Below are positions 14,987 through 59,634 of a stretch of DNA of 64,000 nt, piece after piece. The position numbers and the translations under genes are program-made. The DNA is taken from positions 1,188-65,187 of the forward strand of contig CAMDAO010000003.1 in the NCBI GenBank assembly GCA_945888595.1. Reading direction: 5' to 3'. Every line of letters starts with the position of its first letter. Within the stretch, counting starts at the first letter, position 1. The notes under the pieces were generated by a model that saw only the letters and a list, made by a program, of their open reading frames with translations, did no database searches and was not told where the DNA came from. The DNA comes from Chryseobacterium gleum. GTDB taxonomy: Bacteria; Bacteroidota; Bacteroidia; Flavobacteriales_D; Crocinitomicaceae.

Positions 14987-15618
14987 TGTATATGAATTTA
15001 ATAATATTTGGTAGTATAGCTTACTTATTAGGATCAATTCCTTCTGCTGTGTGGATAGGGAAAACATGGTATGGTATCGATGTGCGAGAGCATGGGAGTA
15101 ATAATTCAGGTGCAACGAATACTTTTCGCGTACTTGGTAAAAATGCAGGAATTACAGTGTTAATTATTGATATATTTAAAGGCTTTTTGGCAGTATACCT
15201 TCCAGTTCTTATTTATTTTGGATCTGAAACTAGTATGGAAGAGGAACTAATTCATATTCAGATTATTGCAGCGATTACAGCAGTGCTAGGACATGTTTTC
15301 CCTATTTTGGCAGGTTTTAAAGGGGGTAAAGGAGTAGCTACATCATTAGGCATAATTATAGGAATTCACCCGCCTACTGCTTTCGTTTGTTTAACCTTAT
15401 TTTTAATTGTATTTTTGACCACGAAATTTGTCTCTTTTGGAGCCATTTGTTCTTCAATCGCTTTCCCAATAGTATTGGTTTTTATTTTTAAGACGACCGA
15501 TTTATATTTAATTTTATTTAGTATTTTTCTTTCATTTGCAGTTATTTTTGCCCATCGCAAGAATATTACTAGATTGATAAAGGGGAAGGAAAATAAAATG
15601 AATTTATTTAACAAATGA
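14986..15618 (+). CDS. plsY: Glycerol-3-phosphate acyltransferase PlsY
   Basis: GSIPSAVWIGK, HGSNNSGATNTFRVLG and FKGGKGVAT motifs; polytopic membrane protein. Confidence 0.9.
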   Translation: MYMNLIIFGSIAYLLGSIPSAVWIGKTWYGIDVREHGSNNSGATNTFRVLGKNAGITVLIIDIFKGFLAVYLPVLIYFGSETSMEEELIHIQIIAAITAVLGHVFPILAGFKGGKGVATSLGIIIGIHPPTAFVCLTLFLIVFLTTKFVSFGAICSSIAFPIVLVFIFKTTDLYLILFSIFLSFAVIFAHRKNITRLIKGKENKMNLFNK

Positions 15619-15641
15619 TATTTTTTTACACAAAATTATAA

Positions 15642-18600: not shown

Positions 18601-21600
18601 CCACGAAATCATCTGCCTCTGATGTAAATAAAAACAATGAAGATCTGAAAGCGTCACAAGCAGAAACCAATTCGGCGTCTCGCGAAAATGAAACTGCCAA
18701 AGCAACAAATTCAAGTCCATTGACAGTAAAAGAAAAGGAATTACTAGTAGAGACTGTAAATCCATCGTATAATGAGAAAGTCGAAAAAATAAGCTCGAAT
18801 TTATCACTATCTGCTGTTGAAAAATTAAAACAATTACAGGATGCGGATAATGAATTATTATCTGGAATAGAAGTGTCTATTAGTAAAACTGAATCTGAAC
18901 TAAAGAAAGCACCTTCAGATAGTGCTTTAAAAGACAAATTGACTGATTTTAAAGCTGTTCAATCCGACTTAACTGCCGCTATTTCCAAACGAGAAAAAGA
19001 AATAGGAACGAATGGTATTTCAAACTCTACAAATCCAATCTCAGCAAAAGAAAAAGAAACACTGGTTGAATCTGTAAACTCTTCATATAACGAACAAGTT
19101 ACGGTAATTAATACGAGTGGATCACTGTCAGAAACGGATAAATTAAATCAACTGCAGGCATTAGATAAGGGATTATTAACAGCTGTGACAAGTCAATTAA
19201 CAAATACAGAATTGGCAGTGAAAAATAGTCCTACGGATCCCGTTTTAGCTAAAAAAGCAGCAGATTTAAAAACAGTACAATCGGATCTTAAATCTGCAAT
19301 TTCAGCTCGTGATCGCGTTATTTCAACGGTAGGTCAACCGTATACTCAAAAAGCAAAAACGGAGATAATTGATGGCTTATCACCCATGTATATTGTTAAA
19401 GTGGCTGATATTAATAAAAATACAACTATTTCAGAACCTGAAAAATTAGCACAATTACAAAAAGCGGACAAAGAATTACTTATTTCTGTGAATAAGGAGA
19501 TTTCTGCACTTGAAAATAATGTTAAAAATAATGCAGATCCACAATTAATAAAGGAATTAGGGGATTATAAATCTTTGAAAAACGAATTGGAATCTGCCAT
19601 TTCAACAAGAGAAAACACCATTGTAGCTGCAACTGGTCAGCCTGGGAAAGGTGAGGAACTAACATCTCAAAATAGAGTTCAGAACACGACCGGTACTTCA
19701 ACAGAACCTGCTAATACTAGTGCTAATAAAGCGCCAGTTAAGAATGATGAAAAAATCAATACTGTAACACAGAATGATCCAGCAGTGAATCAGAAAGAAA
19801 GTAATTTAACATCTCAAAATTCAGTTAAGCAAACGACAAGTACTTCAGCAGAATCGCCTAATAATACTAGTAATAAAGCGCCAATTAAAAATGATGAAAA
19901 ATCAAATTTAATTGAATCTGTTAATTCCAGTTATAATGAAGAAGTAGCGAAGGTAAATGCAAATAATTCACTCACTAGTAATGAAAAATTAAATCAAATT
20001 CAATTATTAGATCGCTCTTTAATTGAGTCTATTACCAAAGAATTAAAAACGACGTCAGATACTAAAAAGAAAGAAAATTTAGCCTCTTTAAAAAAGGAAT
20101 TGGAAGGAAATATTACAGCGCGAGAATTGGTAATTGCTGCTAATTTTAAACCAGTCGACAAAGCTGTGAAGGCAAATGTAATTAAGTCAATTGATTCCAA
20201 ATACGATAAAAAAGTAGAAGCAATTAATACGAATGCGGACTTATCTATTTCAGAAAAACTTACGCAATTACATGAATTAGACTTTGAAGTTATTTCAAAG
20301 ATTAAGCAAGAAATATCAGAAGTTACGGCAGATTTGGCTAAAAAACCCACGGATGCACTTTTAATAAAAAAGATAGAAGATTTGAAAGCTGTTCAAGCTG
20401 ATTTGGAGCATGAATTAGCCAATCGAGAATCTGTAATTGCTGCTACTACTACTATTGTTGATGAGAAAGCAAAGGCCGAGTTAATTGAATCAGTCAGTTC
20501 TCAATACAATGAAAAAGTTCAAGTATTAAAAAATAATGAATATTTGTTGGATTCTGAAAAACAAGCAGAATATCAAAAAATAGATCAACAGCTTCTTCAG
20601 TCCATTGAAAAGGAAATTGTTTCTCTGGAAGGAGAGATGACTTCGAACCCTTCAAATTCTCAATCAAAAAGAAAACTGGAAGGGTTGAAAATAGTAAAAT
20701 CCGACTTGCAGAAATCAATATCGGTTAGAGAAAAGAGTTTAGCTCCTGAGTCAGCATTAAGTAATCCACTTGCTGCAAACGCGGGGCTAATTGAAACGAT
20801 TAGTAAAGGATATACTGAGAAATTAACGCTTATTAATGAAGATGCTTTTATTTCTCACACCGATAAACTTATTCAATTTGAAAAATTAGACAAAGAACTC
20901 CAATTAGTATTAAACAAAGAAGTTACTAAAAGTATTTCTGCCGCTAAAAAGAAACCGAATGATCCAGAGCTACAAAAAAGGAAAAATGATTTAATAGCCC
21001 TCAAAAAGATTCTAGATGAGGTAGTTAATGAAGCGCCGCAACAGATTTTAAATTCGCTCGCCGCTTCTGTTACGGATCAGCAAAAAAACACGTTGATTTC
21101 AGATGTGAAACCAGGGCATGAAGGCAAAACACAAGGAATCAAGAATTCTTCAAAAGAGCCAATTAAAATTATTGAAGAATTAATTATTGAGGAGAAAGCT
21201 TTAATTTCTAAACTAGAAGCGGAAGAAAAAATAAATCAAGTTAATCTAAAGAAAGAGCCAAAGAACGAGGATTTAAAAAGAAAGTCTACTGTTATTACAG
21301 TTGCAATAGAGGAAAGCGAACTTAGAATCAGCGCGTTAAATAGTGGTGCTGTTACTTTAACGATAAGTGATATTAATCAAAAAGCACTCGTATCCAAAGT
21401 TGACCCAACTTTTGAATCGGATGTGAAAACACTTTTTGAATCTAACTCTCCTACGAAATCAAATGATTTAGCAAGTAGAGAAGATAAATTACAGGAAAAA
21501 ATTCTAAGTCAAATATCCGCAAATAATGAAGAAATCGCTAACAATTATACAGTAGAATTAGCGGCTGAAAATCAGATTTTAAATCAAAAATTGATTGAAA

Positions 21601-24314
21601 GTAAAGCAAGAAAAGAAAAATACAAAACGGGAGGAACAGATGTGTCTGTAAATAAGTCAGGTTCTGTTGCTACTGAAAAAGTGAATGAAGTAAGAAATGA
21701 TCTTTTGGTTGACGATGCTGCGGAAGTAAGTAAGAATTATACTAAAATTGATGAATTACACGCTCAAGAAGAGATTTTAACAGGGTACAAAGATACATTA
21801 AAATCGCGCTTGGACAAAGTGAATCAATCGTTGCTCATTGAAAAAAATGAGCCAACCTTAGTAGAACAAAAAGAATCTTATACATCAGAATTGACCATCG
21901 TTGATTCTAAATTGAAACAAGTTACAAAAGCAATCTCAAGTATTGAAGAGTCAGCTCCTGTAGTGATGAATCCTGAATTGAAAAAACTAATAGATCATGA
22001 AGGAGAGATTAAAGAACAATTGGCAAAAACAGATTTATCTAAAAAAGAGCGCGCCTCGTTCGAAAAGGAATTGATCAAAGTCCAAAAAGAAAAGAGTGTA
22101 GTTGAAAATAAACTAATTACAGAAAATATTACTACGCGTAAAGTTGATAATCAAGCTCAGAGTGCCCAGTTAACAAATCTAGCAGCAACATCAGATGCGG
22201 CGAAATTAAATGCTGATTTAGCAACTTCTCAAAATAAGCGTCTGACGGCAGAAACAGACGTCTTAATTGCTCAAGCTGAAAAAACAAAAGATCCCTTAGA
22301 AAAAAATAAATTATTGAATCAAGCAATTGTTAAACAAGTAAAAGCAGATAATGCTGTTCAGAATGCGCTGAAAGAAAATGCAACCTTACTTGCTATAAAA
22401 TCAAAAGTTGAAACATTAGATTCGAAGGAACAATTAGAACAAAAGAAAGTTGGCTTAGAGCAAGAACTAACTGATTTAACAGCAGAAGAGAATCAATTGA
22501 ACGTAGATATTTCAGCAGTTAAACCCGCTAAAGCTGCCGACTTGCAAAAAAAGAAAGAGGGGTTAGTCTATGAAAAAACGTTAATCACAAAAGAACTAGA
22601 ATTGGTTACGAAACAGATTGACAACACCGTTCCAGTCCCAACAACTATTAGTTCAACTGCTATAGAACAGATTATTTCAACAAATGAAGAAAAAAGCCTA
22701 ATTGCCTCTAAAGAATATTTAGAATATGCTATAAATGCAAAAGCGGCTATTCGAGTTGAGGGAGAAATTAAGGAATCTGAGGCAACGTTGACAGAAAAAA
22801 GACAAATTGCAAAGGACTTAATAGGTAAGTCATTAGATAAAAAGAATGCTGTTTTACCTACCGATATTGCTCAAGCCGTAGAAAATGTCAAAATAGTTGA
22901 AGATGAAATCTCTACGTTGAAACAAGAATTGGCTGAAAAACAAAAAAATGCAAGTACTGTGTTTGGGGGTATCCCTGATAAAAAGGGCAAACTGGAAAAT
23001 CTTTTGAAAAGGGAAATCGAACCTAGCTACAATAAAGATTTAGCGGAAGCAGAGGCGAAAAGAATGGAAGCAGAAGGGTTGACGATCGAAGCTAAAAAGG
23101 CAGAAGGTATTGAGATTGTTCCTGTTTTGACACCAATTAATATTTATTCCTCCACAAATCCAATTCCAGTGGATGTAAAGAATGGTTCAGGTCTGCTTTA
23201 TAGAATTCAGGTGGGAGCATTTTCTAAACCGATCGCACAAGATATGTACAAATCATTTACTCCAGTGTCTGGGGAAAAACTGAGTAGCGGAGTGACACGA
23301 TATATGGCGGGTTATTTTAATAAAAATGTAATTGCAGAAGAAGCACATACACAAGTGAAAGCGTTAGGCTATATGGATGCATTTATTGTAGCGTATTGCG
23401 ATGATAAACGAATTCCGCTCGCTGAAGCAAAAAGTTTAGAAGCATCAGGCGAATGTATTTCAACAAAAAGTGAGTTATTTGTGATTGCGACTTCTAAAAT
23501 GCCTTCGGCTACCTCCATGTCTAAAGAACCGAATACAACTGATTTGAGCTATAATATTGCACCGGGAGCAGCAAAAGCAACGCCTGTTGAATCTCATTTA
23601 GGTTTATTCTACACAGTTCAAGTTGGTGTATATAACAAGCCAGCAACTGCTAAACAATTAAAAAACATAGATCCTTTGGTTACAAAACGTTTACCGAATG
23701 GTCAGATTCGATATTCATCAGGGATGTTTAATTCGATTGAAGCCGCAAAACCTAAAAAAGCCGATGCTAGGGCAAAAGGTGTGAAAGATGCATTTATTAG
23801 CGCTTATTATAAAGGAGAAAGAATAACCTTATCGCAAGCAAGTCTTTTACTGAAAAAGAATGGAGAAGGAATTTTGGAGAAACTCGACAACGAATTGGTT
23901 TCTTCAGTTCAGCCAGCTGAAAAAATATCTACCGTTATTCCTACTGAAAACAGTAAGGCAACAACTAATTACAATGTGGGACCAGGAGCTGTTAAAGCAA
24001 CAGCGGTGGAGACAAAGTTAGGCTTATTCTTTACGGTTCAAATTGGTGTATATAGCAAACCAGCTACTAAAAAACAGTTGAATAATGTAACAGATTTAAT
24101 CACGAAGAAATTGCCAAATGGGCAACTACGTTATTCATGTGGTATGTATACCTCAATTGAAGCGGCTGAACCTAAACGTCAGGAGGCATTATCAAAAGGT
24201 GTGAATCATGCTTATATTACGGCGTATTATCAGGGTGAACGAATTACCATTTCTGAAGCAAAAGAATTGCTGCGTATCAATGGCGATTCAATTTTAGAAA
24301 AAATAGAAAAATAA
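15642..24314 (+). CDS. Giant (2890 aa) envelope protein: signal peptide, TPR, TolB-like PD40 repeats, CarboxypepD_reg-like domain, ~2000-aa repetitive coiled coil, three C-terminal SPOR domains
   Basis: Single uninterrupted 8.7-kb ORF with signal peptide MILKSIYLLVLVVFSTTFSFSQ and TPR-like AYYFLAKAFHLNYQFNDAIKYYKIY. PD40-like DGNYLYFSSKGHNSMGGFDVF and AYFASGRQSEEGKLFVYKV. An E/K/L/Q-rich middle region. SPOR-like YRIQVGAFSKP, FYTVQVGVYNKPATAKQL and FFTVQIGVYSKPATKKQL. Confidence 0.85.
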   Translation: MILKSIYLLVLVVFSTTFSFSQETIEEVKSTADKLFEDEKYLEATPYYLRLLAIEPRNHNYNFRYGTCLLYNTSKGQDVFKYLNYAVTNEAVEVEAYYFLAKAFHLNYQFNDAIKYYKIYQTKAAENAKQVLDVKRQIEMCENGKRLITTITEMVVIDKKEIEVEKFFRIYDLSNIGGNLLVTAEFQTKIDEKKAHIPLIHFPENPTVIYYSSYGDNGKTGKDIYVRRRLPTGGWGVPQAIQGGVNTNFDEDYPYMHPDGNYLYFSSKGHNSMGGFDVFRCKYDAETDVFGMAENIDYAVSSPDDDLFYVVDSLNKNAYFASGRQSEEGKLFVYKVRVDRVPLNMSVVKGQFSSTINAAQKNVFVDVKDYATGEFIGNFNSNDKGVYLITFPKGGKYEFTIKVGDSPQEYKYIASIPFLKEFKPLKQKIIHAMDGDRENVKVIDLFDEQMEDPQAVFAQVLKLKAVLAPNISQEEIALLDKDLKSKQVLEELGIGKLSLVEVGYLLDEEVKDAEKAQGGTAEIENKVNTQIIGNSKEINRLDLVIKSKLDKANVADSDKKKYKLLKEADRALKLQEDLKLLNEVSLKYADSISKIPVTGSEAKTAEVKKFAQHFNELLKDNKQKEAYAYLYDNKIAIKNIIEVKAPDPLQDMIDRGLILDNEINRLQPKDDQYARDIKKIELDIATLEQSKVTAKNKDLSDIQAAIKSKMNEKNMITEERNFNGVGLNDKITERSSLRKRIDILAEIYDIKADKIISKEELTSALASSKATNSAAIRKELGEEITSLLLKSPDIKEIDYSEMEGELGSVVTKSRTQSDKIKTDPSLTAEQKATKLNAVNAELLTTINKEVSIAKRAVEKNPTDPNLKAKLDALQFSKSLVAASLDIPSDEVDAEVVTSTVSNGSSTNPTSTSVAVNSEKPTNGTTSSEGSLKPPIVTDSPKTEVTKNTEVSATVPSTESKSGSTSAATVPKVSAKGGEVASSQSASTTKSSASDVNKNNEDLKASQAETNSASRENETAKATNSSPLTVKEKELLVETVNPSYNEKVEKISSNLSLSAVEKLKQLQDADNELLSGIEVSISKTESELKKAPSDSALKDKLTDFKAVQSDLTAAISKREKEIGTNGISNSTNPISAKEKETLVESVNSSYNEQVTVINTSGSLSETDKLNQLQALDKGLLTAVTSQLTNTELAVKNSPTDPVLAKKAADLKTVQSDLKSAISARDRVISTVGQPYTQKAKTEIIDGLSPMYIVKVADINKNTTISEPEKLAQLQKADKELLISVNKEISALENNVKNNADPQLIKELGDYKSLKNELESAISTRENTIVAATGQPGKGEELTSQNRVQNTTGTSTEPANTSANKAPVKNDEKINTVTQNDPAVNQKESNLTSQNSVKQTTSTSAESPNNTSNKAPIKNDEKSNLIESVNSSYNEEVAKVNANNSLTSNEKLNQIQLLDRSLIESITKELKTTSDTKKKENLASLKKELEGNITARELVIAANFKPVDKAVKANVIKSIDSKYDKKVEAINTNADLSISEKLTQLHELDFEVISKIKQEISEVTADLAKKPTDALLIKKIEDLKAVQADLEHELANRESVIAATTTIVDEKAKAELIESVSSQYNEKVQVLKNNEYLLDSEKQAEYQKIDQQLLQSIEKEIVSLEGEMTSNPSNSQSKRKLEGLKIVKSDLQKSISVREKSLAPESALSNPLAANAGLIETISKGYTEKLTLINEDAFISHTDKLIQFEKLDKELQLVLNKEVTKSISAAKKKPNDPELQKRKNDLIALKKILDEVVNEAPQQILNSLAASVTDQQKNTLISDVKPGHEGKTQGIKNSSKEPIKIIEELIIEEKALISKLEAEEKINQVNLKKEPKNEDLKRKSTVITVAIEESELRISALNSGAVTLTISDINQKALVSKVDPTFESDVKTLFESNSPTKSNDLASREDKLQEKILSQISANNEEIANNYTVELAAENQILNQKLIESKARKEKYKTGGTDVSVNKSGSVATEKVNEVRNDLLVDDAAEVSKNYTKIDELHAQEEILTGYKDTLKSRLDKVNQSLLIEKNEPTLVEQKESYTSELTIVDSKLKQVTKAISSIEESAPVVMNPELKKLIDHEGEIKEQLAKTDLSKKERASFEKELIKVQKEKSVVENKLITENITTRKVDNQAQSAQLTNLAATSDAAKLNADLATSQNKRLTAETDVLIAQAEKTKDPLEKNKLLNQAIVKQVKADNAVQNALKENATLLAIKSKVETLDSKEQLEQKKVGLEQELTDLTAEENQLNVDISAVKPAKAADLQKKKEGLVYEKTLITKELELVTKQIDNTVPVPTTISSTAIEQIISTNEEKSLIASKEYLEYAINAKAAIRVEGEIKESEATLTEKRQIAKDLIGKSLDKKNAVLPTDIAQAVENVKIVEDEISTLKQELAEKQKNASTVFGGIPDKKGKLENLLKREIEPSYNKDLAEAEAKRMEAEGLTIEAKKAEGIEIVPVLTPINIYSSTNPIPVDVKNGSGLLYRIQVGAFSKPIAQDMYKSFTPVSGEKLSSGVTRYMAGYFNKNVIAEEAHTQVKALGYMDAFIVAYCDDKRIPLAEAKSLEASGECISTKSELFVIATSKMPSATSMSKEPNTTDLSYNIAPGAAKATPVESHLGLFYTVQVGVYNKPATAKQLKNIDPLVTKRLPNGQIRYSSGMFNSIEAAKPKKADARAKGVKDAFISAYYKGERITLSQASLLLKKNGEGILEKLDNELVSSVQPAEKISTVIPTENSKATTNYNVGPGAVKATAVETKLGLFFTVQIGVYSKPATKKQLNNVTDLITKKLPNGQLRYSCGMYTSIEAAEPKRQEALSKGVNHAYITAYYQGERITISEAKELLRINGDSILEKIEK
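18093..21630 (+). repeat. About 10 divergent ~100-aa (about 300-nt) tandem protein modules inside the giant ORF
   Basis: Recurring pattern K.K..LIESVN.SYNEKV..IN....LS..EKL.QLQ.LD..LL..I..E.......KK.P.D..L..K..DLK.VQ.DL...IS.RE..I. Units start near 18093, 18712, 19034, 19341, 19908, 20156, 20461, 20765, 21072 and 21361. Confidence 0.75.
23194..24311 (+). other. Three SPOR (peptidoglycan-binding) domains at the C-terminus of the giant ORF
   Basis: Approximate domains at 23194-23445, 23603-23880 and 24023-24311. The last two, with their ~25-aa leaders (NIAPGAAKATPVESHLG / NVGPGAVKATAVETKLG), are an obvious duplication. Confidence 0.7.
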
Positions 24315-51353: not shown

Positions 51354-52835
51354 ATGAGTACAAGAAGTATTAATAATGAATGGATTTCATTAGCTGAAAT
51401 TGATGAAATCTTAAATGAAAATAATGTAATTGAATTGTCTGAAAGCGCAAAATCGGCTATCCAAAAATGCAGAACGTATTTAGATGAAAAAGTTGTTAGA
51501 AGTGGACGTTTGATGTATGGTGTCAATACAGGGTTTGGATCGCTATGCAATACGGCTATTTCTAATGAAGATTTAGAACAATTACAAAAGAATTTGGTTC
51601 TTTCTCATGCGTGCGGAACGGGTGAAGAAGTTCCTTCTGCTTTGGTAAAAAGAATGATATTATTGAAAATTATTGGTATTTCTCACGGTCATTCTGGGGT
51701 CCAAGTTGAGACTGTTGAACGATTGATTTTCTTCTTCAATAACAATATTCTTCCGCTTATATATCAACAAGGGAGTTTAGGTGCTTCCGGCGATTTAGCT
51801 CCTCTGGCGCATTTGTCATTACCACTAATCGGCGAAGGACAGGTATATGTAAATGGCGAAAAAATGTCCAGTAAAGCGATGAATGAAAGATTTAATCTGA
51901 AACCAATTGTTCTGCGATCAAAAGAAGGATTGGCCTTGTTAAATGGGACACAATTCATGAGCGCTTACGCATCGTATTGCGTTAGGCATACCGAAAAATT
52001 ATTCAATCAGTTCAATCAAATAGCTGCTATTTCTTTAGAAGGTTATGACGGAAGAATTGAACCCTTTGGCGTTTCTGTAAATGCAATTAGAAGGCAAAAT
52101 GGCCAGATAGCTGTTGCTAAAATTATGCGTGATTTATTAGCAGGTAGTGAAATCTCGAAGCAAGAAAAAGCGCATGTTCAAGATCCGTATTCTTTTAGAT
52201 GTATTCCCCAAGTTCATGGTGCTTCGCTGGATGCGATTTTACATTGCAAGGAAATAGTTGAACGTGAAGTGAATGCTGTGACGGATAACCCAACCATTTT
52301 TCCTGATGAAGACTTGGTGGTTTCTGCTGGCAATTTTCATGGTCAGCCTTTGGCTATTTCTATGGATTTCTTAGCTATTGCTTTAGCTGAATTAGGTAGT
52401 ATTTCTGAACGAAGAGTGTATAAATTAATCTCAGGGACTAGAAATTTACCTTCATTTTTGGTGGCTAATCCAGGATTAAACTCAGGATTTATGATTCCTC
52501 AATATACATGTGCTTCCATCGTTAGCCAAAATAAACAACTTTGTTCGCCGGCAAGTGTGGACACAATTGATTCTTCAAATGGTCAAGAAGATCATGTGAG
52601 TATGGGGGCAAATGCAGCGACGAAATTGCACAGAATTGTAGAGAATTGTTATACTATCCAAGCGATTGAGATTTTAAATGCAGCACAAGCATTCGAATTT
52701 AGAAGACCATTGAAATCTTCTCCTCAAATAGAATCTTTGGTTTCTAACTATCGCAAAGAGGTGTCATTTGTAGAAAAAGATCAATTCTTGCAACCTTTGA
52801 TTGCTAAAAGTCGAGAGTTTGTTGTGAATCTTTAG
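51354..52835 (+). CDS. hutH: Histidine ammonia-lyase
   Basis: MIO-forming GASGDLAPLAHL. The selectivity position reads LVLSHACG (Ser-His, HAL type rather than TAL/PAL). Confidence 0.85.
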   Translation: MSTRSINNEWISLAEIDEILNENNVIELSESAKSAIQKCRTYLDEKVVRSGRLMYGVNTGFGSLCNTAISNEDLEQLQKNLVLSHACGTGEEVPSALVKRMILLKIIGISHGHSGVQVETVERLIFFFNNNILPLIYQQGSLGASGDLAPLAHLSLPLIGEGQVYVNGEKMSSKAMNERFNLKPIVLRSKEGLALLNGTQFMSAYASYCVRHTEKLFNQFNQIAAISLEGYDGRIEPFGVSVNAIRRQNGQIAVAKIMRDLLAGSEISKQEKAHVQDPYSFRCIPQVHGASLDAILHCKEIVEREVNAVTDNPTIFPDEDLVVSAGNFHGQPLAISMDFLAIALAELGSISERRVYKLISGTRNLPSFLVANPGLNSGFMIPQYTCASIVSQNKQLCSPASVDTIDSSNGQEDHVSMGANAATKLHRIVENCYTIQAIEILNAAQAFEFRRPLKSSPQIESLVSNYRKEVSFVEKDQFLQPLIAKSREFVVNL

Positions 52836-52864: not shown

Positions 52865-53917
52865 CTAGCAATAGTGATTTAATTTTTCGTGAATTTCAGT
52901 GCACTTTTTTAGTAAATCTTCATTAACGCCGTCACATTTTCTTTCTTTGGATGGAAATGATTTTAGTTCAAATTGTGTCTCGTGCAGTCCAATTTTAGTT
53001 GAAATTTCCTGGAGGTAATTCGTAGGTTCTTCACAAAATTTCTCATAGGAAAAAAGTACACATGAATCCATAAAGTGCTCGGATACATACGTGTAATAAT
53101 TTAACCAAGTCAATAACCAATAATTGATATCTTCTTTACTAGTCTCCAATAATTGATCGAATACAGAATCATTTCCCAAATAAAATGGTTTTTGATTTAA
53201 TCCAAATTCATAATGACCAATCCAATTCATATATTTCAATGTGAATGGATTTACTGTTTGAAGTTTACAAAAATGTTGATGCTGATTTAACAGTGAAAGT
53301 GCATGCTGTAAAGGGGTTCTAAAAGGAATAACAACGGTAGCTTTTGGGAAATTTTGTAAGATGGAAGATAAGCGCAAAATTGAATTATTGTTTTTTGATA
53401 GATATCTGTTTCCTGCTTTTTTACTGTGTTTTAAAATAATCAAATCAATATATTGGCTATAGCGAGTTTTGTTTTCGAGACCAATTTCATGAAGCACGAG
53501 GCGATCTTTTTGAATGTATGTATTATCTAAAAAAAATTTCCAGAACACTTCGTCCAACGCTTCGGGACTCTCATTATTTATTAAAATACCATCTTTATGT
53601 GATCGTTCCTTCTTTTTTAATTCTTCGCCTGTTCTTCTTTTAGAAAACTTTCCTCCAAAATTGGGAGCAAGTATAAAAGGTATATCTTCATAGGTTAATG
53701 ACGAAAATTGATTGGTTTCATGGAGAAGATTCAGGAAGGCTGTCGTACCACTTCTAGCTAAACCACTAATGAAAAGATGGTTTTCTTCTAAATTATGCTT
53801 CGTTTTTTTTAGATAAAGTACTTTTTCAATTTCAAAACTCATTTCAGAAACAGACTTCGAACCTAGACTGATTTTATGAAGGAATTTAGAAATAAAATTA
53901 TAGCTGTTTTCTTCCAT
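52865..53917 (-). CDS. Cytoplasmic P-loop (PAPS-type) sulfotransferase family protein
   Basis: 5'-phosphosulfate-binding loop ISGLARSGTTAF near the N-terminus. RTPLQHALSLL resembles the 3'-phosphate-binding block. No signal peptide. Confidence 0.6.
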   Translation of the reverse strand: MEENSYNFISKFLHKISLGSKSVSEMSFEIEKVLYLKKTKHNLEENHLFISGLARSGTTAFLNLLHETNQFSSLTYEDIPFILAPNFGGKFSKRRTGEELKKKERSHKDGILINNESPEALDEVFWKFFLDNTYIQKDRLVLHEIGLENKTRYSQYIDLIILKHSKKAGNRYLSKNNNSILRLSSILQNFPKATVVIPFRTPLQHALSLLNQHQHFCKLQTVNPFTLKYMNWIGHYEFGLNQKPFYLGNDSVFDQLLETSKEDINYWLLTWLNYYTYVSEHFMDSCVLFSYEKFCEEPTNYLQEISTKIGLHETQFELKSFPSKERKCDGVNEDLLKKCTEIHEKLNHYC

Positions 53918-54281
53918 ATTTCTTCTTAATAGAAAAGTAAATCAGAAATGAGAGGGAAGTAAGTAGTATCCCATCTATCGATATTAATAGTGCGTAAAAA
54001 TTATTGGTAGCAGTTATTATGTGACCAAACAAAGCAAGAAAAGTAAATGGACTGAAAACAAGTAGAAAGAAAAAAAGCAATTTAAAAGAAGTCAGAAAAA
54101 TCTTTGAAGTATAAGATAAAAGTGCTTTCTGCTTTTGATCATCTGTTAATGTTTTATCGGCAATAACCTTGAATGATTCTCTTTGTATCGTAAATAAGTA
54201 CTTACTCTCTTTGATAATCGATAAAAAATCAAACAAAAAAGCGGTAAAAAAACTGAAAATTAACACAAGAAGATACGCCAT
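53898..54281 (-). CDS. Small polytopic membrane protein (127 aa)
   Basis: Start set at MAYLLVLIFSFFTAFLF. About 4 hydrophobic segments. Its 3' end overlaps the sulfotransferase start by 20 nt. Confidence 0.55.
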   Translation of the reverse strand: MAYLLVLIFSFFTAFLFDFLSIIKESKYLFTIQRESFKVIADKTLTDDQKQKALLSYTSKIFLTSFKLLFFFLLVFSPFTFLALFGHIITATNNFYALLISIDGILLTSLSFLIYFSIKKKYGRKQL

Positions 54282-54283
54282 AT

Positions 54284-54463
54284 TTATTTCTTGAATTTGG
54301 ATTTCAAAAATCGAAATAGTCTTTTTAATGGATACCAAAAAATAGCGATTAAGGACAAGAAAAATGAAGTTAATATTCCTAAAATTGCAAGGATTGTTCC
54401 TGATCCAAGTCCTGGCCCAATATATAGGGGTACAGTTACTAATTTTATTAATAATACATCCAT
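54284..54463 (-). CDS. 59-aa membrane peptide (not in ORF track)
   Basis: ATG 54461-54463 to TAA 54284-54286, hand-translated codon by codon: MDVLLIKLVTVPLYIGPGLGSGTILAILGILTSFFLSLIAIFWYPLKRLFRFLKSKFKK. The stop is 2 nt before the next gene's ATG. Confidence 0.4.
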   Translation of the reverse strand: MDVLLIKLVTVPLYIGPGLGSGTILAILGILTSFFLSLIAIFWYPLKRLFRFLKSKFKK

Positions 54464-54618
54464 TACTGTTACTTTTTTATAAAAGTAAGATTTTAATTTC
54501 TTGTTGGGTAGGAATTAGTCTAGTAAATATGATTTATTGTGGATTTTTTTCATCTGATGTTTATCTCGCACAAGAACTACTCGTAGAATAAAGTACATAA
54601 AAATAATCTAGCTTGAAT

Positions 54619-55914
54619 TTACTTTTTCTTGATGAAATCAAGTGCTTTGAATTCACTTTCTGTGATATACGTAGACCAACATAAACGGCTAACTTTGTTT
54701 TTATCAATGCGATCAATATATGACCACATTTCGTGATTTTTGTCTCCAAAGACAATTCTGCCTTGATTTGTTTCTTCAACAAAAATAGTTTCATCCTTCA
54801 ATATTCTTGATAAACCTTCTGAAATCGTACCAATCTTAGAGGATTTAAATAATTGTTCGTAGGGCGTTGTAATTATATTCGTGGAGAAATCATACATGTA
54901 TTGATTATTATGTCCATCGATTAAAACTCCTGTTTTGTCTAAATTTTGGGCGTCAATTACATTATTACCAAAGATCCCAATTCGTGTAGAATCAAGAATG
55001 TCAATATCATGTTGACGCAACCAAGGCCCATTTTGTGACCAAATAATTTTGTTGGTAGAAGGACGATATAACATAACCATATTTTGATTCCGTAGACTTA
55101 AAAATAAATCTCCTTTTTTCCAGTACTTAGAATCTTTTAATACCGGTTGAATATCATTTAAATGGACATAATCCATTGATGCGGAAATCGGGCTTTCTTC
55201 AGCATTGATAAAAAAGTTACCTCTTCCATATCCATTCGCCATTAAAATCTCAAAAACTGATTTTTCAAATAAAATTTTTCCTGTTATTGCAGAAACTTCT
55301 TTAATGGCATCATCCAGAATTTGGTATTTTTTCGCATTCTTGGTGGAGCTATTAAAACTACAAAACCAATAATTATTTCCAAGGCCTTTTTCAATTGAAT
55401 GGTGACAATAAGCATCACTCCACCAAACAATTTTTGAGTTTTTATTCACTTTATAGAGAATCTCCGATCCAAAAAGCAGGGAACCATCAGATAATAAAGA
55501 CGGATGCATTAATTTAATTGAATTTCGTGAACGATGTGCGTGATTAATATGGTCGATATTAACCACCCATTTATGCATAATTACACCATCTCTAATTCGC
55601 ACTAATTTTACAATAGATTGTTCTAACAGGTGATCCCAACTTGAAACAAGGACATAATCGTTACTTTTTTTGTAGAAGTTAGAATAGTTAAATCCATTGT
55701 GTAATTTTAAAGAACTATTTATCTCTAATGGTTTTGTCAATTCAGCGTAATCATAAATATTTGATAAAAATGTAGATAGAAAAATGATTGCTTTCTTCGA
55801 ATATCCCTCCATCCGGGTGTTGTTCAGCAATACATATCTTGTAGCCCCCATAAAGAAGACCAAAATAAAAAAGAACACCCAGAAAAAAATTAGATATTTA
55901 ATAATTTTCTTCAT
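54619..55914 (-). CDS. Membrane-anchored aryl-sulfotransferase (ASST)-like beta-propeller protein, paralogue B
   Basis: N-terminal TM YLIFFWVFFFILVFFMG. His-centred blocks CHHSIE, YVHLNDIQP and PWLRQHDIDIL, which I associate with ASST-type enzymes. Family call is from memory. Confidence 0.5.
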   Translation of the reverse strand: MKKIIKYLIFFWVFFFILVFFMGATRYVLLNNTRMEGYSKKAIIFLSTFLSNIYDYAELTKPLEINSSLKLHNGFNYSNFYKKSNDYVLVSSWDHLLEQSIVKLVRIRDGVIMHKWVVNIDHINHAHRSRNSIKLMHPSLLSDGSLLFGSEILYKVNKNSKIVWWSDAYCHHSIEKGLGNNYWFCSFNSSTKNAKKYQILDDAIKEVSAITGKILFEKSVFEILMANGYGRGNFFINAEESPISASMDYVHLNDIQPVLKDSKYWKKGDLFLSLRNQNMVMLYRPSTNKIIWSQNGPWLRQHDIDILDSTRIGIFGNNVIDAQNLDKTGVLIDGHNNQYMYDFSTNIITTPYEQLFKSSKIGTISEGLSRILKDETIFVEETNQGRIVFGDKNHEMWSYIDRIDKNKVSRLCWSTYITESEFKALDFIKKK

Positions 55915-56226
55915 CTTAGTAGAATCATATTCTCAAAGTTACATAGAAACTGCGAAAGGTGAACAATTACCTTGACCTAAAATGTGTGAGGGAAAGAAAA
56001 GAAAAATTGTTTTTCCTCTTTGGGAATAGCATAATCAAAACGTAAAATCCGGAACTCCTGTTGTATACGTAACTTCTTTTTTGCAAGCCAAGTCTTCATC
56101 CGATAATTTTTTTCTGAACTACTAGCAAAGGAAAGTTGAGTAGAATCTTGTGCATTAAAGCTTGTGATGCCTGAAATGATTAAAATAAAAAGAATGCAGT
56201 TTTTTCACTGTACAAAATAGATTTTT

Positions 56227-57873
56227 TTATTCAGTGGTATATACTTTTTTTCCTATGATAAAAGTCATATAGGCATAGTTTTGCTTGAATTCTGAAGAGG
56301 ATGAAATCGGATAATCTAAAATTGTAAAAGTGGCGTCTTTTCCTTTTTCCAATGTTCCCAATTCATTTTCTTGAAAGGAGGCGAATGCAGCCCATTTAGT
56401 CATGCCATTAATACATTGATCTAAAGTAATTGCCTCATTAGAAAGAAATCCATTACTAGGTGAATTTTCTTCATTCATTCGCTGAACTGCCGCATGAATC
56501 GTTAAAAACGGATTAAAACTTTCAATAGGGAAATCGGTTCCAATTGCCAGCATTCCCGCTTGATTTAATAGTTTTTTATAAGCGTAAGCTCCTTTCAATC
56601 GTGTTTTTCCTAATCTAGTTTCGGCCCATCTCATATCGCTAACGGCATGCGTAGGTTGCACAGATGGAAACACTGCGTATTCACTAAACAATTTAAAATC
56701 AATAGGATCTAGGACTTGTGCATGTTCAATTCTCCACCGATGATCTTTGTTTACTTCATAAATCATCTTATATAGGTCTAATACAATTCGATTGGTAGAA
56801 TCTCCAATTGCATGTGTATTCATTTGGTAACCAATACTTTCACATATTAATGCAATCCGCTTCATTTCTGTGAATGAAGTTGTTAAGGATCCAAAATGCT
56901 GGTGTTCATCTGCGTATTCCTTTTTCAAATACGCCCCTCTTGAACCTAAAGAACCGTCGCCAAAAACTTTAAAACTACGAATGAGCAAATTTTTATAGGT
57001 GTAAATCCCATTTTTCTTAGCGAATTCAATGTTTTTTGTGGAAGGAAGAAGCATGGCATATATGTTCAATTGCAATTTTTTTTGGTCAATTAATTCTTTA
57101 AAATAGGCTATTTCTTCAAATTCAATTCCCGCTTCATGAACGCCTGTTATTCCATACTGAAATAATTCATTTTGTATTTCTAGTATTGTTTTCTGAATTT
57201 CATTCTTTGAATAACTTGGAAGAATTTTTGTAACAGCATTCATAGCATTATCAATGAGAATTCCAGTGCATTTTCCTTCCTTGACAAGTATTTCTCCTCC
57301 CTCGATTTCTGTCGTCGGACTTATATTTACTTTGCGCAAGAGGGCATCATTCACCAACATCGCATGACCATCAACGCGCGTTAGGCAAATTGGTGTTGTT
57401 GGGTACAATTTATTTAATTGTTCATTGGTAGGCATCTCATTGGTGTTCCACAGCGATTGATCCCATCCTCTTCCTATAATGAACGTTCGTTTATTTCGTG
57501 ATTGGTATTTCTCAATTCGAATCAAAACTTCATCAAATGAACGAACACCTGTTACATCAAGCCCTAATTTCTTTTTTACGAGCGACATAATGTGCCCGTG
57601 AGCATCTGTGAAACCAGGATATACATCTTTGCCTTCTGCATCTATCTCTTCACTTGAAGTGTAGCGATTAAGTATTTGTCTTTCCGCTCCAATTTCTACA
57701 ATTTTCCCATCTTTTATTGCGATGGCTTCAAAAATAGCGTCAGCATCATTGAGTGTGTGAATTCGCGCATTATGAATAATAAGGTCCACTTTTTTACCTT
57801 TAAAACAACCTGAAAGAAATGTTGTTGAAAAAGCGATTAGCAAGAAGTTCAGTATGTAAATAGATTGTTTCAT
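56227..57873 (-). CDS. Exported Amidohydro_3-type metal-dependent hydrolase (lipoprotein)
   Basis: Lipobox FLSGC. FTDAHGHI (HxH) and downstream His/Asp blocks (NTHAIGD, IGTDFP). Confidence 0.7.
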   Translation of the reverse strand: MKQSIYILNFLLIAFSTTFLSGCFKGKKVDLIIHNARIHTLNDADAIFEAIAIKDGKIVEIGAERQILNRYTSSEEIDAEGKDVYPGFTDAHGHIMSLVKKKLGLDVTGVRSFDEVLIRIEKYQSRNKRTFIIGRGWDQSLWNTNEMPTNEQLNKLYPTTPICLTRVDGHAMLVNDALLRKVNISPTTEIEGGEILVKEGKCTGILIDNAMNAVTKILPSYSKNEIQKTILEIQNELFQYGITGVHEAGIEFEEIAYFKELIDQKKLQLNIYAMLLPSTKNIEFAKKNGIYTYKNLLIRSFKVFGDGSLGSRGAYLKKEYADEHQHFGSLTTSFTEMKRIALICESIGYQMNTHAIGDSTNRIVLDLYKMIYEVNKDHRWRIEHAQVLDPIDFKLFSEYAVFPSVQPTHAVSDMRWAETRLGKTRLKGAYAYKKLLNQAGMLAIGTDFPIESFNPFLTIHAAVQRMNEENSPSNGFLSNEAITLDQCINGMTKWAAFASFQENELGTLEKGKDATFTILDYPISSSSEFKQNYAYMTFIIGKKVYTTE

Positions 57874-57969
57874 TTGACTTCATTTTTGAATACTTCAAAG
57901 ATAAGAATCTGCTTTGAATACCAATAATTAAAATAATTTCAGTGCTCTTTTTATAAATTAACTGGTGTT

Positions 57970-59289
57970 TTATTTTAAAAAAGTTAAATTTTTGAATTCC
58001 TTTTCAGTGATATATCTGCTCCAATTGAAAATGCTCAATTTAGTTTCATCGATGCGCTCAACGTAGGACCAAATCGCTGTTTTTTTGTTCCCAAAAAGAA
58101 TTCTACCATTGTTGGTTTCTTCAACAAAAATATTACCATTGTCAAGAACCCTAGCTAGACCTTCTGTGTAGGTTCCGATTTTTGAACTTTTAAAAAAAGA
58201 AGTGTAAGGAGTAGTGCAGGAATTTGTTTCAAAATTAATGACGTATAAATTATTGTGACCATCTACTAACGTTTGTTTTTTGTCGGTAAATTGGGCATCG
58301 ATTACGTTATTTCCAAAAACACTAATCGTGGTTGAATCCATAATATTAATATCATGCTGTCTCAACCAAGGTCCTTTCTTTGACCAAATGATCTTATTCG
58401 TAGAAGGTCGATATTGTACAATCAAATTTTGATTTCTTAAACTTAAAAATAAGTCATCTTTTTTCCAATATTTACCATCGAATAAGGCGGGTTGAATATC
58501 ATTTAAATGGCTGTAATCTAAATACATTATTTGGGAAGAAAAATCTGGATTTACGAAAAAATTGGCTCTTCCGTAACCGTTTTCCATTAATAGATCAAAG
58601 ACTGATTTTTCAAAAATAATCTGCCCAGTTTTTAATGATATTTTTTGAATAGCATCATCTTGAATGAGGTATTTTTTTTGATTTCTTGTCGAACGATTGT
58701 ATCCGCAAATCCAATAATCGCCTTCACTGGATGCTTCAATAGAGTGTGTGTTTTTGTTTTTGTTCGACCAAATTAGTTTTGAATTTTTATCTACTTTATA
58801 AGTACCCCCGGATCCAAAGACAAGGGAACCATCAGGCAGCAAAACTGGATGCTGCATGCTTGTTGTGTTTTTGGTTAAACGATGCTTTTCACCATTTGTC
58901 GATGAAGTATTGTAGATGTCATTTAACTCATCGATATTGACAACCCATTTATGCAGAATAGCCCCATCACTAATTCGCACCAATTTCACGATGGATTGCG
59001 CCAAAGAATCATTCCAAACAGAAACAAGAAGATAATCTTTACTAGGAGTATAGTTGCTAGATTTATTAAAGCCGCTTTTAAGCTTGAAATTGCTCTCAAC
59101 CACCATTTGTGTATTTATCTTTTTATACTCTTTGATGTTGGATAAAAATGATGATAGAAAAAGCACTATTTCTCGAGAAGTCCCTTTAATAGATCCATTT
59201 AACATTACGTTTCGCGTAATTCCCATAGAAAAAAGAATGGCAAAGAAAAAGATCCAAAAAGCAATAATGTATTTTATTCGTTTTTTCAT
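57970..59289 (-). CDS. Membrane-anchored aryl-sulfotransferase (ASST)-like beta-propeller protein, paralogue A
   Basis: Colinear with 54619-55914 over the full length. More than half of positions are identical in my by-eye alignment (SIVKLVRI.DG...HKWVVNID, YSHLNDIQP, LFLSLRNQN, YRPSTNKIIWS..GPWLRQHDI). Confidence 0.5.
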   Translation of the reverse strand: MKKRIKYIIAFWIFFFAILFSMGITRNVMLNGSIKGTSREIVLFLSSFLSNIKEYKKINTQMVVESNFKLKSGFNKSSNYTPSKDYLLVSVWNDSLAQSIVKLVRISDGAILHKWVVNIDELNDIYNTSSTNGEKHRLTKNTTSMQHPVLLPDGSLVFGSGGTYKVDKNSKLIWSNKNKNTHSIEASSEGDYWICGYNRSTRNQKKYLIQDDAIQKISLKTGQIIFEKSVFDLLMENGYGRANFFVNPDFSSQIMYLDYSHLNDIQPALFDGKYWKKDDLFLSLRNQNLIVQYRPSTNKIIWSKKGPWLRQHDINIMDSTTISVFGNNVIDAQFTDKKQTLVDGHNNLYVINFETNSCTTPYTSFFKSSKIGTYTEGLARVLDNGNIFVEETNNGRILFGNKKTAIWSYVERIDETKLSIFNWSRYITEKEFKNLTFLK

Positions 59290-59343
59290 TGGATAGATTC
59301 AACGTGCTATGCTAAAGTAGTTTTTTTTTTGATATGTTGAAGA

Positions 59344-59538
59344 TTACTTTTTCAATAGCTTATATACTCTAAACAGTCTGAATACGGCATAGGTTAGTAA
59401 AATAGCTATAAGAACTTTTCGCATAGTTTCGCTAAGTTTCCAATCTATTGAGTCTGTAAAAGCCAGATTATACGATAATGTTATGCAGGCGACAGAAATA
59501 AATAAAGCAAGTAGTATATTAATTATATTGTAGTTCAT
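59344..59538 (-). CDS. 64-aa two-TM membrane protein
   Basis: MNYNIINILLALFISVACITLSY...VLIAILLTYAVFRLFRVYKLLKK. It is the first ORF after the tonB terminator, 54 nt upstream of paralogue A. Confidence 0.45.
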   Translation of the reverse strand: MNYNIINILLALFISVACITLSYNLAFTDSIDWKLSETMRKVLIAILLTYAVFRLFRVYKLLKK

Positions 59539-59597: not shown

Positions 59598-59634
59598 AAA
59601 AAAAATCCCCGAAAGCAAAAGTAGCTACGGGGAT
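59598..59634 (-). terminator. Rho-independent terminator of the exbB-exbD-exbD-tonB operon
   Basis: Stem ATCCCCG / CGGGGAT with a 16-nt loop, followed on the minus strand by T8. It lies 21 nt after the tonB stop. Confidence 0.65.

Follow-up and report, generated by a model that had tools for sequence, protein, structure and literature searches.

A conserved four-gene cassette pairing an ASST-like propeller with a predicted PAPS-type sulfotransferase

In this work we analyse a minus-strand locus (positions 52865-59538) of a 64,000-nt stretch of contig CAMDAO010000003.1, called the window hereafter, in which genes for aryl-sulfate sulfotransferase (ASST)-like proteins lie close to a gene for a sulfotransferase of the type that uses 3'-phosphoadenosine 5'-phosphosulfate (PAPS). 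The conserved functional unit of this locus is a cassette of four genes, asstB-sm59-mem127-sult (52865-55914), and not the full set of seven open reading frames (ORFs) that an initial annotation had taken for one candidate sulfation pathway. The core arrangement recurs in dozens of unrelated contigs and is far beyond chance.

PAPS is confined to the cytoplasm, and the cassette could explain how bacteria sulfate molecules outside it. In it, the genetic linkage of an ASST-family enzyme to a PAPS enzyme and a dedicated pair of membrane proteins is almost obligatory, and a kinase for adenosine 5'-phosphosulfate (APS) is linked as well. The linkage holds in freshwater, marine and soil Bacteroidota as well as in a cultured Novosphingobium, which makes the questions it raises testable in culturable hosts. 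According to a 2026 review (PMC13426309), Cpz4 is the only bacterial ASST whose natural substrates and physiological role are known.

Results

The four-gene cassette

The locus comprises seven minus-strand ORFs, listed below in the order of transcription.

sm64, 59344-59538, minus strand: 64 aa, small membrane protein 5' of asstA
asstA, 57970-59289, minus strand: 439 aa, PF14269 at 4.9e-39 and 134.9 bits
amidohydrolase, 56227-57873, minus strand: 548 aa, Amidohydro_3 lipoprotein, between asstA and asstB
asstB, 54619-55914, minus strand: 431 aa, PF14269 at 3.8e-34 and 118.9 bits, first gene of the cassette
sm59, 54284-54463, minus strand: 59 aa, single-pass membrane protein
mem127, 53898-54281, minus strand: 127 aa from ATG, or 146 aa if an upstream TTG is used
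sult, 52865-53917, minus strand: 350 aa, Sulfotransfer_3 (PF13469), PAPS-type

Scanning metagenomes with a 22-sequence profile yielded 80 loci with 31-95% identity. ORFs were called in these loci and searched with hidden Markov models (HMMs) built from the window proteins. The 45 ASST-like genes followed by at least 2 kb of downstream DNA (31-56% identity) formed the eligible set. The ASST-like gene was followed by an sm59 homologue in 42 of these 45 loci, while mem127 and sult lay downstream in 38 and 37, respectively, and the complete order ASST-like-sm59-mem127-sult was found in 36. A sult gene was present somewhere in the locus in 43 cases, and an APS kinase gene in 18. Successive cassette genes are tightly packed, with median gaps of -4, -1 and -8 nt. 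The reverse look-up, starting from sult, gave an ASST-like gene immediately upstream in four of four homologues; both sm59 and mem127 were called in two of these loci (L090 and L091), only a mem127-sized gene in L093, and neither in L092, where an unannotated gap separates the ASST-like gene from sult. PAPS-dependent and ASST-type enzymes are thus encoded together and co-inherited.

Three loci with 52-57% identity (L005-L007) illustrate the compact unit, in which an APS kinase gene, whole or fragmentary, is combined with the ASST-like gene, ORFs of 59 aa and 124-127 aa and a Sulfotransfer_3 gene; it lies in unrelated surroundings and lacks the amidohydrolase. In two of the three loci the ASST-like gene is directly preceded by an ORF of 59 aa that matches APS_kinase weakly (L005 9781-9960 and L006 4225-4404) and is probably the remnant of a truncated cysC. 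At L015 (5769-6518) the ASST-like gene and sm59 are intact, and in place of mem127 and sult there is no more than a 119-aa ORF that contains scrambled sult-like strings; the cassette appears to have decayed here, leaving frameshifted remnants of sult. It adjoins a methyltransferase, a family 1 glycosyltransferase (GT1) and a Wzy-like polymerase.

Within the window, sm59 and mem127 are separated by 2 nt and mem127 overlaps sult by 20 nt. The asstB-sm59 spacer (54464-54618) measures 155 nt and is the longest of 69 cassettes (median -4 nt); an AT-rich hairpin, TTACTTTT/AAAAGTAA, closes it just 5' of the sm59 start.

The initial annotation had correctly described the seven ORFs, their positions, the 2-nt gap and the 20-nt overlap, and a Pfam scan agrees with its assignment of the ASST-like proteins, of the Amidohydro_3 protein (lipobox LSGC) and of the sulfotransferase (SGLARSGTTAF). 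Its central idea, that a cytoplasmic PAPS-type enzyme is paired with an extracytoplasmic ASST-like enzyme and small membrane proteins, is supported. Conservation of the neighbourhood is very strong for asstB-sm59-mem127-sult, whereas the amidohydrolase, which had been counted in the same set, is not co-conserved, and sm64 and asstA are a lineage-specific extra copy.

The ASST-like propeller

Both asstA and asstB score well above the PF14269 cut-off of 27 bits. The related family PF05935 (cut-off 24.2 bits) is reached by six relatives (P0025, P0039, P0062, P0078, P0120 and P0052) at 25-28.6 bits, and its profile aligns several family members collinearly over positions 89-212, which correspond to the first three of the motifs described below (E 1e-6 to 2e-5). 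The AlphaFold2 (AF2) model of asstA (pLDDT 90, pTM 0.85) displays a helix at residues 2-29 and another at 37-59, followed after residue 60 by about six four-stranded blades. The model and its Foldseek matches identify a six-bladed β-propeller. The best match in the PDB was Cpz4 (9kf4, E 1.9e-12, and 9kf6, E 1.1e-10; TM score 0.54); E. coli ASST (4p04) ranked 11th with E 1.8e-8 and TMq 0.55, and generic propellers had lower TM scores. Neither the asstA sequence nor the 22-sequence profile returned anything useful when searched against the PDB, and no sequence similarity of the window propellers to Cpz4 was detectable, so that the link to Cpz4 and ASST comes from the fold comparison only. With an HMM of the E. 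coli ASST family, only weak local matches were obtained.

The active site of ASST consists of His252, His356, Asn358, Arg374 and His436, the last being the sulfated residue (PMC13426309). In the E. coli CFT073 reference (assT at L089:8857-10653), mature residues 252, 356, 358, 374 and 436 are indeed H, H, N, R and H; the RefSeq translation carries a single X, at codon 172, owing to an ambiguous base in the record. Five motif matches, all collinear, relate this sequence to asstA, and they place the residues as follows.

E. coli ASST ATHESIE, asstA NTHSIE: H182
E. coli ASST WAHVNSI, asstA YSHLNDI: H261 and N263
E. coli ASST DDSIILSSRHQ, asstA KDDLFLSLRNQ: R285
E. coli ASST YTQH...LTIFDNG, asstA LRQH...ISVFGNN: H312

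Conservation was assessed in 102 family sequences with 23-95% identity to asstA. H182, H261, N263 and H312 are invariant in all 102; R285 is kept in 96, and R294 and Q311 are each kept in 101. We therefore regard the ASST-type catalytic set as conserved in the window family on the grounds of motif, invariance and predicted fold, the mapping being one at motif level. The motifs HSIE, HLNDIQP and WLRQHDI, from which the ASST-like character had originally been proposed, are present with invariant histidines, and the suggested structural check gave the expected outcome for asstA, a predicted six-bladed propeller whose catalytic histidine is conserved at motif level.

The propeller N-terminus has the layout of a Sec signal, with basic residues (MKKRIK...) followed by a hydrophobic stretch of 17-19 residues. 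In asstB a single N-terminal transmembrane segment (residues 4-22) follows the basic start MKKIIK, and such a lone N-terminal hydrophobic segment is found in 93 of the 102 family members. Duplication of the propeller gene is recurrent, being seen in the window and at L049, L056 and L081.

The sulfotransferase and mem127

The sult protein matches PF13469 at 1.1e-10 (42.6 bits, cut-off 27). Residues 51-61 (SGLARSGTTAF) form the 5'-phosphosulfate-binding loop, in which G52, L53, R55, S56, G57, T58 and T59 are invariant among 23 homologues and which aligns to FIGGVPRSGTT of TPST1. Family score and loop both identify sult as a member of the PAPS sulfotransferases. Its AF2 model (pLDDT 79) includes a disordered loop at residues 83-113 (pLDDT <50) that holds the conserved motif KERAHKDG. 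All 50 best Foldseek matches are PAPS sulfotransferases, with TM scores of 0.36-0.46; M. tuberculosis Stf1, an Alicyclobacillus enzyme and human TPST1/2 head the list, and NDST is also among the top matches. A search of the PDB with the sult family profile found TPST1 as the best match (E ~7e-4), with three collinear segments including the RSGTT loop. The invariant stretch Y172-L-S-K-N-N-N and R182, together with R171 (at least 90%), align to the 3'-phosphate-binding region of TPST1, at the level of the region. From sequence and model, sult is predicted to be a cytoplasmic, TPST-like PAPS-type sulfotransferase.

The mem127 protein has three predicted transmembrane segments (5-23, 68-86 and 98-116), a K/R-rich loop and a K/R-rich C-terminus, which give a predicted N-out, C-in topology. 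A mem127-like three-segment domain is fused to the N-terminus of sult in P0166, P0189 and P0220 (470-490 aa), which accounts for the length of these homologues, and also at L029. The predicted C-in topology would place sult at the cytoplasmic face of the membrane, and mem127 can be considered a putative membrane tether or adaptor of sult. No Pfam or NCBIfam match was obtained for mem127 or for sm59.

The small protein sm59

Across 74 sequences, sm59 follows the pattern Y14-I-G-P-G-x-G-x-G, one transmembrane helix, W-Y44-P-x-K-R and a basic C-terminal tail. A full-library search returned 639 cluster representatives, nearly all of 47-125 aa. Of the 150 best representatives, 145 contain the Y-I-G-P-G-x-G-x-G motif; 144 of these begin it with Tyr, and 143 of the 145 keep the juxtamembrane Tyr of W-Y-P-x-K-R. 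Most representatives have a signal peptide before the motif, with Ala at position -1 in 126/143 and Ala or Val at -3 in 114/143. The typical signal peptide thus ends in AxA with the invariant Tyr directly after it, so that most mature sm59 proteins would begin with this Tyr, at the outer face. The predicted mature form resembles M13 procoat. Its predicted outside location supports that of the partner propeller. The window subfamily has a short N-tail of 12-13 residues in place of the signal peptide. No informative fusion of sm59 to a larger protein was found; the one long match, P0391, is repetitive.

Distribution and neighbourhoods

Cassette loci have a GC content of 26-46%, with one outlier at 69%, and the source-given names of their carriers are Bacteroidia, Bacteroidetes, Flavobacteriales and Daejeonella. 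The cassette at L072 (9935-12897, CABFVK010000001.1) lies on a 477-kb contig of 68.6% GC. A tblastn search of plasmids found a complete cassette on a 611-kb plasmid or chromid (67% GC) of the cultured strain Novosphingobium capsulatum HAMBI_0103.

N. capsulatum cassette, L094 8743-11741 = NZ_CP140001.1 318647-321645: all four HMMs match and all catalytic residues are kept

L072 suggests a second lineage outside Bacteroidota. The N. capsulatum genes are annotated as arylsulfotransferase family protein, hypothetical, hypothetical and sulfotransferase; their neighbours encode TonB-dependent receptors, alcohol and aldehyde dehydrogenases and an MHYT-domain protein. The strain could serve as a host for experiments.

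Flanking genes vary between loci, and the cassette is therefore self-contained. Among 144 neighbouring proteins from 46 loci the sole recurrent theme is nucleotide-sugar and glycan synthesis, with 12 GDP-mannose dehydratases/epimerases, five family 2 glycosyltransferases (GT2), four GT9, four GT1, three DegT and three Acyl_transf_3 proteins. Wzy_C, GT2 and Bac_transf genes occur at L090, L091 and L005, and single loci add Poly_export and MBOAT. Neither cysH nor cysIJ is recurrent among the 144 proteins.

Two loci have distinctive surroundings. In a Daejeonella metagenome-assembled genome (L090 11820-21065) the cassette and an APS kinase gene are immediately followed by a 2165-aa polyketide synthase (PKS) and a non-ribosomal peptide synthetase of at least 1468 aa, with a Wzy_C/TPR protein, two GT2 and an Acyl_transf_3 upstream; the product could be a sulfated lipopeptide or polyketide. 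Downstream of the L007 cassette (12824-19675) lie genes for a GNAT protein, an OleD-like 2-alkyl-3-oxoalkanoate reductase, a lactonase-like metallo-beta-lactamase, an ABC-2 transporter, an F390-synthetase-related protein (TIGR02304, 462 bits) and a FabH-type β-ketoacyl-acyl carrier protein synthase III (KAS III), which look like a lipid-type biosynthetic set. A dialkylresorcinol (phenolic lipid) synthase beside this cassette was considered as a maker of the carrier and rejected, because the genes are not DarA/DarB, the KAS III being FabH-like (37.8 bits against the DarB model, cut-off 550), and because only one locus has them.

Locus boundaries and genes outside the cassette

The boundaries of the locus, a convergent hutH and the terminator of the tonB operon, are both present as first described. 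A candidate promoter lies within it.

hutH, 51354-52835, plus strand: convergent with the sult end of the locus
exbB-exbD-exbD-tonB intrinsic terminator, about 59598-59634, minus strand: stem ATCCCCG/CGGGGAT followed by T8
Bacteroidetes-type -7 box TAnnTTTG, 55934-55941, minus strand: 27 nt upstream of the asstB start, candidate cassette promoter by consensus match only

The terminator lies in a 116-nt spacer and marks the upstream boundary; it was recognised by reading the sequence directly and folding it, an automated terminator scan having overlooked the hairpin. A sigma-70 promoter scan is uninformative for Bacteroidota. A second TAnnTTTG box, also a pattern match, lies upstream of the amidohydrolase. 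The two boxes, before the amidohydrolase and before asstB, together with spacers of 96-312 nt within the locus (312 nt between amidohydrolase and asstB), suggest at least three transcription units. A 40-aa minus-strand ORF at 55977-56099 within the amidohydrolase-asstB spacer is probably spurious. At the other boundary, L093 (2704-3933; sult 77% identical) has a 409-aa Ice_binding/Por_Secre_tail protein, sorted by the type IX secretion system, inserted between sult and the convergent hutH.

The amidohydrolase (PF07969 at 3.1e-73, 248 bits; lipobox LSGC at residues 20-23) has as its nearest solved structures the uncharacterised metal-dependent hydrolases 3igh and 3icj. Its HMM matches L001-L004 only, and the gene is absent from L005-L087, including all 80 metagenomic loci. 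L002-L004 (92% identity) have the same seven-gene set as the window. L001, from a Flavobacteriales metagenome-assembled genome whose asstA is 85% identical, shows tonB-sm64-asstA, then an insertion of 8 kb, and then an amidohydrolase 95.6% identical to that of the window. On this insert (11330-19049), whose genes run on the opposite strand, MacB-like and ABC ATPase genes are accompanied by those for a TolC-like protein, a membrane-fusion protein, a PAS histidine kinase and a response regulator that has a cNMP-binding/Crp-type part. Because it is confined to these four loci and stands 8 kb from asstA in one of them, the amidohydrolase is a bystander and not a member of the cassette.

The sm64 HMM matches only L001-L004 and L008. 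The layout of sm64 is loosely like that of sm59 (hydrophobic N-terminus, Tyr23, loop, transmembrane segment and basic tail), with a weak C-terminal similarity between the two (E 0.055). asstA and asstB share 57.5% identity and are sisters in a neighbour-joining tree. The sm64-asstA pair is an old, lineage-specific extra copy.

An NCBIfam scan of the window proteins added nothing specific. Elsewhere in the window there are two very large plus-strand ORFs, at 10367-14986 (1539 aa) and 15642-24314 (2890 aa).

Discussion

A proposed relay across the inner membrane

We propose that the cassette carries out a two-step sulfation like that of Cpz8/Cpz4, split across the inner membrane, and we put about equal weight on this being right and on its being wrong. 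In such a relay sult, held at the cytoplasmic membrane face by mem127, would draw on PAPS, for which the linked APS kinase often provides, and form an activated sulfate ester on a carrier that is associated with the membrane and probably aromatic. sm59 and mem127 would help this ester to reach the outer face, where the exported, anchored propeller could accept the sulfuryl group on its catalytic histidine (H312 in asstA) and hand it to an acceptor unable to meet PAPS, most likely an envelope glycan or glycolipid. The proposal builds on the enzyme families, the propeller fold, the conserved ASST-type active site, the mem127-sult fusions, the co-conservation and packing of the genes across distant lineages, and the APS kinase linkage.

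Topology, direction of flow, the carrier and the envelope-glycan acceptor are elements that we infer. Several points weigh against the relay. Both asstA and asstB themselves fall below the PF05935 threshold; when the family profile was aligned by hhalign to E. coli ASST, either to the single sequence or to a 20-sequence profile, a blade-shifted match of 28 columns came out at 1-2% probability, and Smith-Waterman scores against E. coli ASST are not significant (z = 1.7 for asstA and 0.6 for asstB). Export of the propeller is prediction-based, and the charge on either side of its transmembrane segment is similar (+1.7 vs +1.4). The cassette contains no gene for synthesis of the carrier, that is, no equivalent of Cpz6, and no APS kinase or ATP sulfurylase gene was found in the window. 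The enrichment of glycan genes is modest, is one of raw counts, and does not hold in the window.

A more specific version of the relay, possible although we lean towards doubting it, makes the invariant Tyr of sm59 the aryl sulfate carrier. The TPST-like, membrane-tethered sult would sulfate it, the short loop would be inserted across the membrane, and the propeller would use the sulfotyrosine as donor for envelope acceptors. Mature sm59 would then begin with a Tyr on a flexible Gly-rich tether at the outer face, and the second invariant Tyr (W-Y-P-x-K-R) would lie at the inner face. This would explain why the cassette has no carrier-synthesis gene and, if true, sm59 would be a gene-encoded sulfuryl shuttle that replaces PAPS outside the cytoplasm.

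Other readings arrange the same enzymes differently. The reaction may dispense with a carrier, sult sulfating the final product or a lipid-linked precursor (an undecaprenyl-linked sugar or a membrane lipid) inside, and the propeller editing it after export by moving or removing sulfate via sulfohistidine. This rests on the same co-conservation data as the relay and agrees with the recurrent glycan-biosynthesis neighbours; ASSTs shuffle sulfate among many acceptors (PMC13426309), and repeated propeller duplication would suit differing specificity for acceptor or position. ASST-type enzymes need a good leaving group, however, and by established chemistry alkyl and sugar sulfates are poor donors in comparison with aryl sulfates; editing would also leave the invariant Tyr of sm59, and the obligatory presence of this protein, unexplained. 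We judge it rather unlikely. Improbable, in our view, is a two-step chemistry wholly on the cytoplasmic face, with the propeller N-out/C-in or peripheral, as a membrane-bound version of Cpz8/Cpz4 that sulfates a membrane lipid. The weak charge bias around the transmembrane segment would fit, as would the fact that Cpz4 is reportedly a soluble protein working beside a cytoplasmic PAPS-dependent enzyme; the Sec-type N-terminus, with its single segment in most of the family, speaks against it, as do the cleavable signal peptide that puts the invariant Tyr of sm59 outside in most lineages and the periplasmic location of E. coli ASST (PMC13426309).

The flow could also be reversed, the propeller harvesting sulfuryl groups from environmental aryl sulfates and the cytoplasmic enzyme making PAPS from aryl sulfate and 3'-phosphoadenosine 5'-phosphate, thereby saving ATP. 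PAPS sulfotransferases are reversible with aryl sulfates, and, judged by their sample names, the loci come from fresh water, the sea and soil, habitats in which organic sulfate esters abound. Scavenging is nevertheless very improbable, since an APS kinase, which makes PAPS, is linked in 18 of the 45 loci and points to PAPS consumption, and cysH and cysIJ are not recurrent among the neighbours. Scarcely credible is the original view that all seven genes form a single pathway that makes, exports and edits a sulfated metabolite. In the window and in L002-L004 the genes do lie side by side on the same strand, but sm64-asstA is lineage-specific, the amidohydrolase is absent from all cassettes beyond L001-L004, and in L001 some 8 kb of opposite-strand efflux and two-component genes stand between it and asstA; moreover it evolves at a different rate (95.6% vs 85% for asstA) and is set off by separate -7 boxes and long spacers, in line with the three or more transcription units suggested above.

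Should the relay be real, it would provide a general route for extracytoplasmic sulfation and account for the function of a large branch of the ASST superfamily that is so far uncharacterised. Neither the enzyme families nor the two-step principle is new; the novelty lies in the proposed arrangement across the membrane, in the two small proteins and in how widely the cassette is distributed. No description of the cassette was found in the literature searched, in which work on PF14269, judged by titles, concerns plants, algae and a fungal pathogen.

Comparison with known systems

The closest parallel is the caprazamycin system of Streptomyces sp. MK730-62F2 (Cpz8/Cpz6/Cpz4). According to the summary of Tang et al. 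2013 (Nat Chem Biol 9:610) in PMC4257720, a polyketide pyrone is sulfated by the PAPS-dependent Cpz8, and the resulting aryl sulfate serves the ASST-type Cpz4 as donor. On that account, the claim of the initial annotation that no characterised pathway has such a composition was too strong. The caprazamycin system, as described there, and the cassette both encode PAPS-dependent and ASST-type enzymes together, and it is Cpz4 that the asstA model matches best in structure (E 1.9e-12). Unlike that system, the cassette has no type III PKS (Cpz6) or other carrier-synthesis gene, and no PKS is recurrent among the 144 neighbouring proteins. The window propeller also differs in its Sec-type membrane anchor, and the cassette in the predicted tethering of its PAPS enzyme to a three-segment membrane protein, with which it is sometimes fused, and in its obligatory small Tyr-bearing membrane protein. 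Finally, the cassette stands outside antibiotic gene clusters, as a mobile module in Bacteroidota and at least one alphaproteobacterium.

AssT of uropathogenic E. coli (PF05935; 3ELQ, 4P04) resembles the window proteins in its six-bladed propeller, in its extracytoplasmic location (predicted for the window proteins) and in the motif pairs THESIE/THSIE, AHVNS/SHLND, LSSRHQ/LSLRNQ, TQH/RQH and FDNG/FGNN. The window proteins differ in that they belong to PF14269 and lack the N-terminal Ig-like domain PF17425, which is present in the E. coli protein (P0241). CFT073 assT is flanked by dsbL and dsbI, whereas neither is near the window genes, which places these outside the AssT subfamily. They have a predicted membrane anchor where AssT has a cleaved signal peptide, and AssT has no linked PAPS enzyme.

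With TPST1/2, sult shares the Sulfotransfer_3 family and the RSGTT loop; TPST1 is its best PDB match by sequence and TPST1/2 are among its top folds. As in the RaxST-RaxX system, a small gene-encoded Tyr-bearing peptide, here sm59, adjoins the enzyme. The similarity to TPST is weak, however (E ~7e-4, TM score ~0.37), and Sulfotransfer_3 also includes enzymes acting on lipids and sugars. In contrast to the substrates of TPST and RaxST, sm59 has no acidic residues around its Tyr and stays in the membrane, with no ABC exporter or peptidase gene adjacent.

In the GtrA/GtrB/Gtr system of O-antigen glucosylation and the ArnC/ArnEF/ArnT system of lipid A modification, an inner enzyme charges a carrier, small proteins move the carrier across the membrane, and a periplasmic transferase modifies the envelope glycolipid. 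The cassette has no homology to Gtr or Arn components, sm59 and mem127 matching no Pfam or NCBIfam model, and the group moved would be sulfate; by analogy only, this three-component logic matches that of the relay proposed here.

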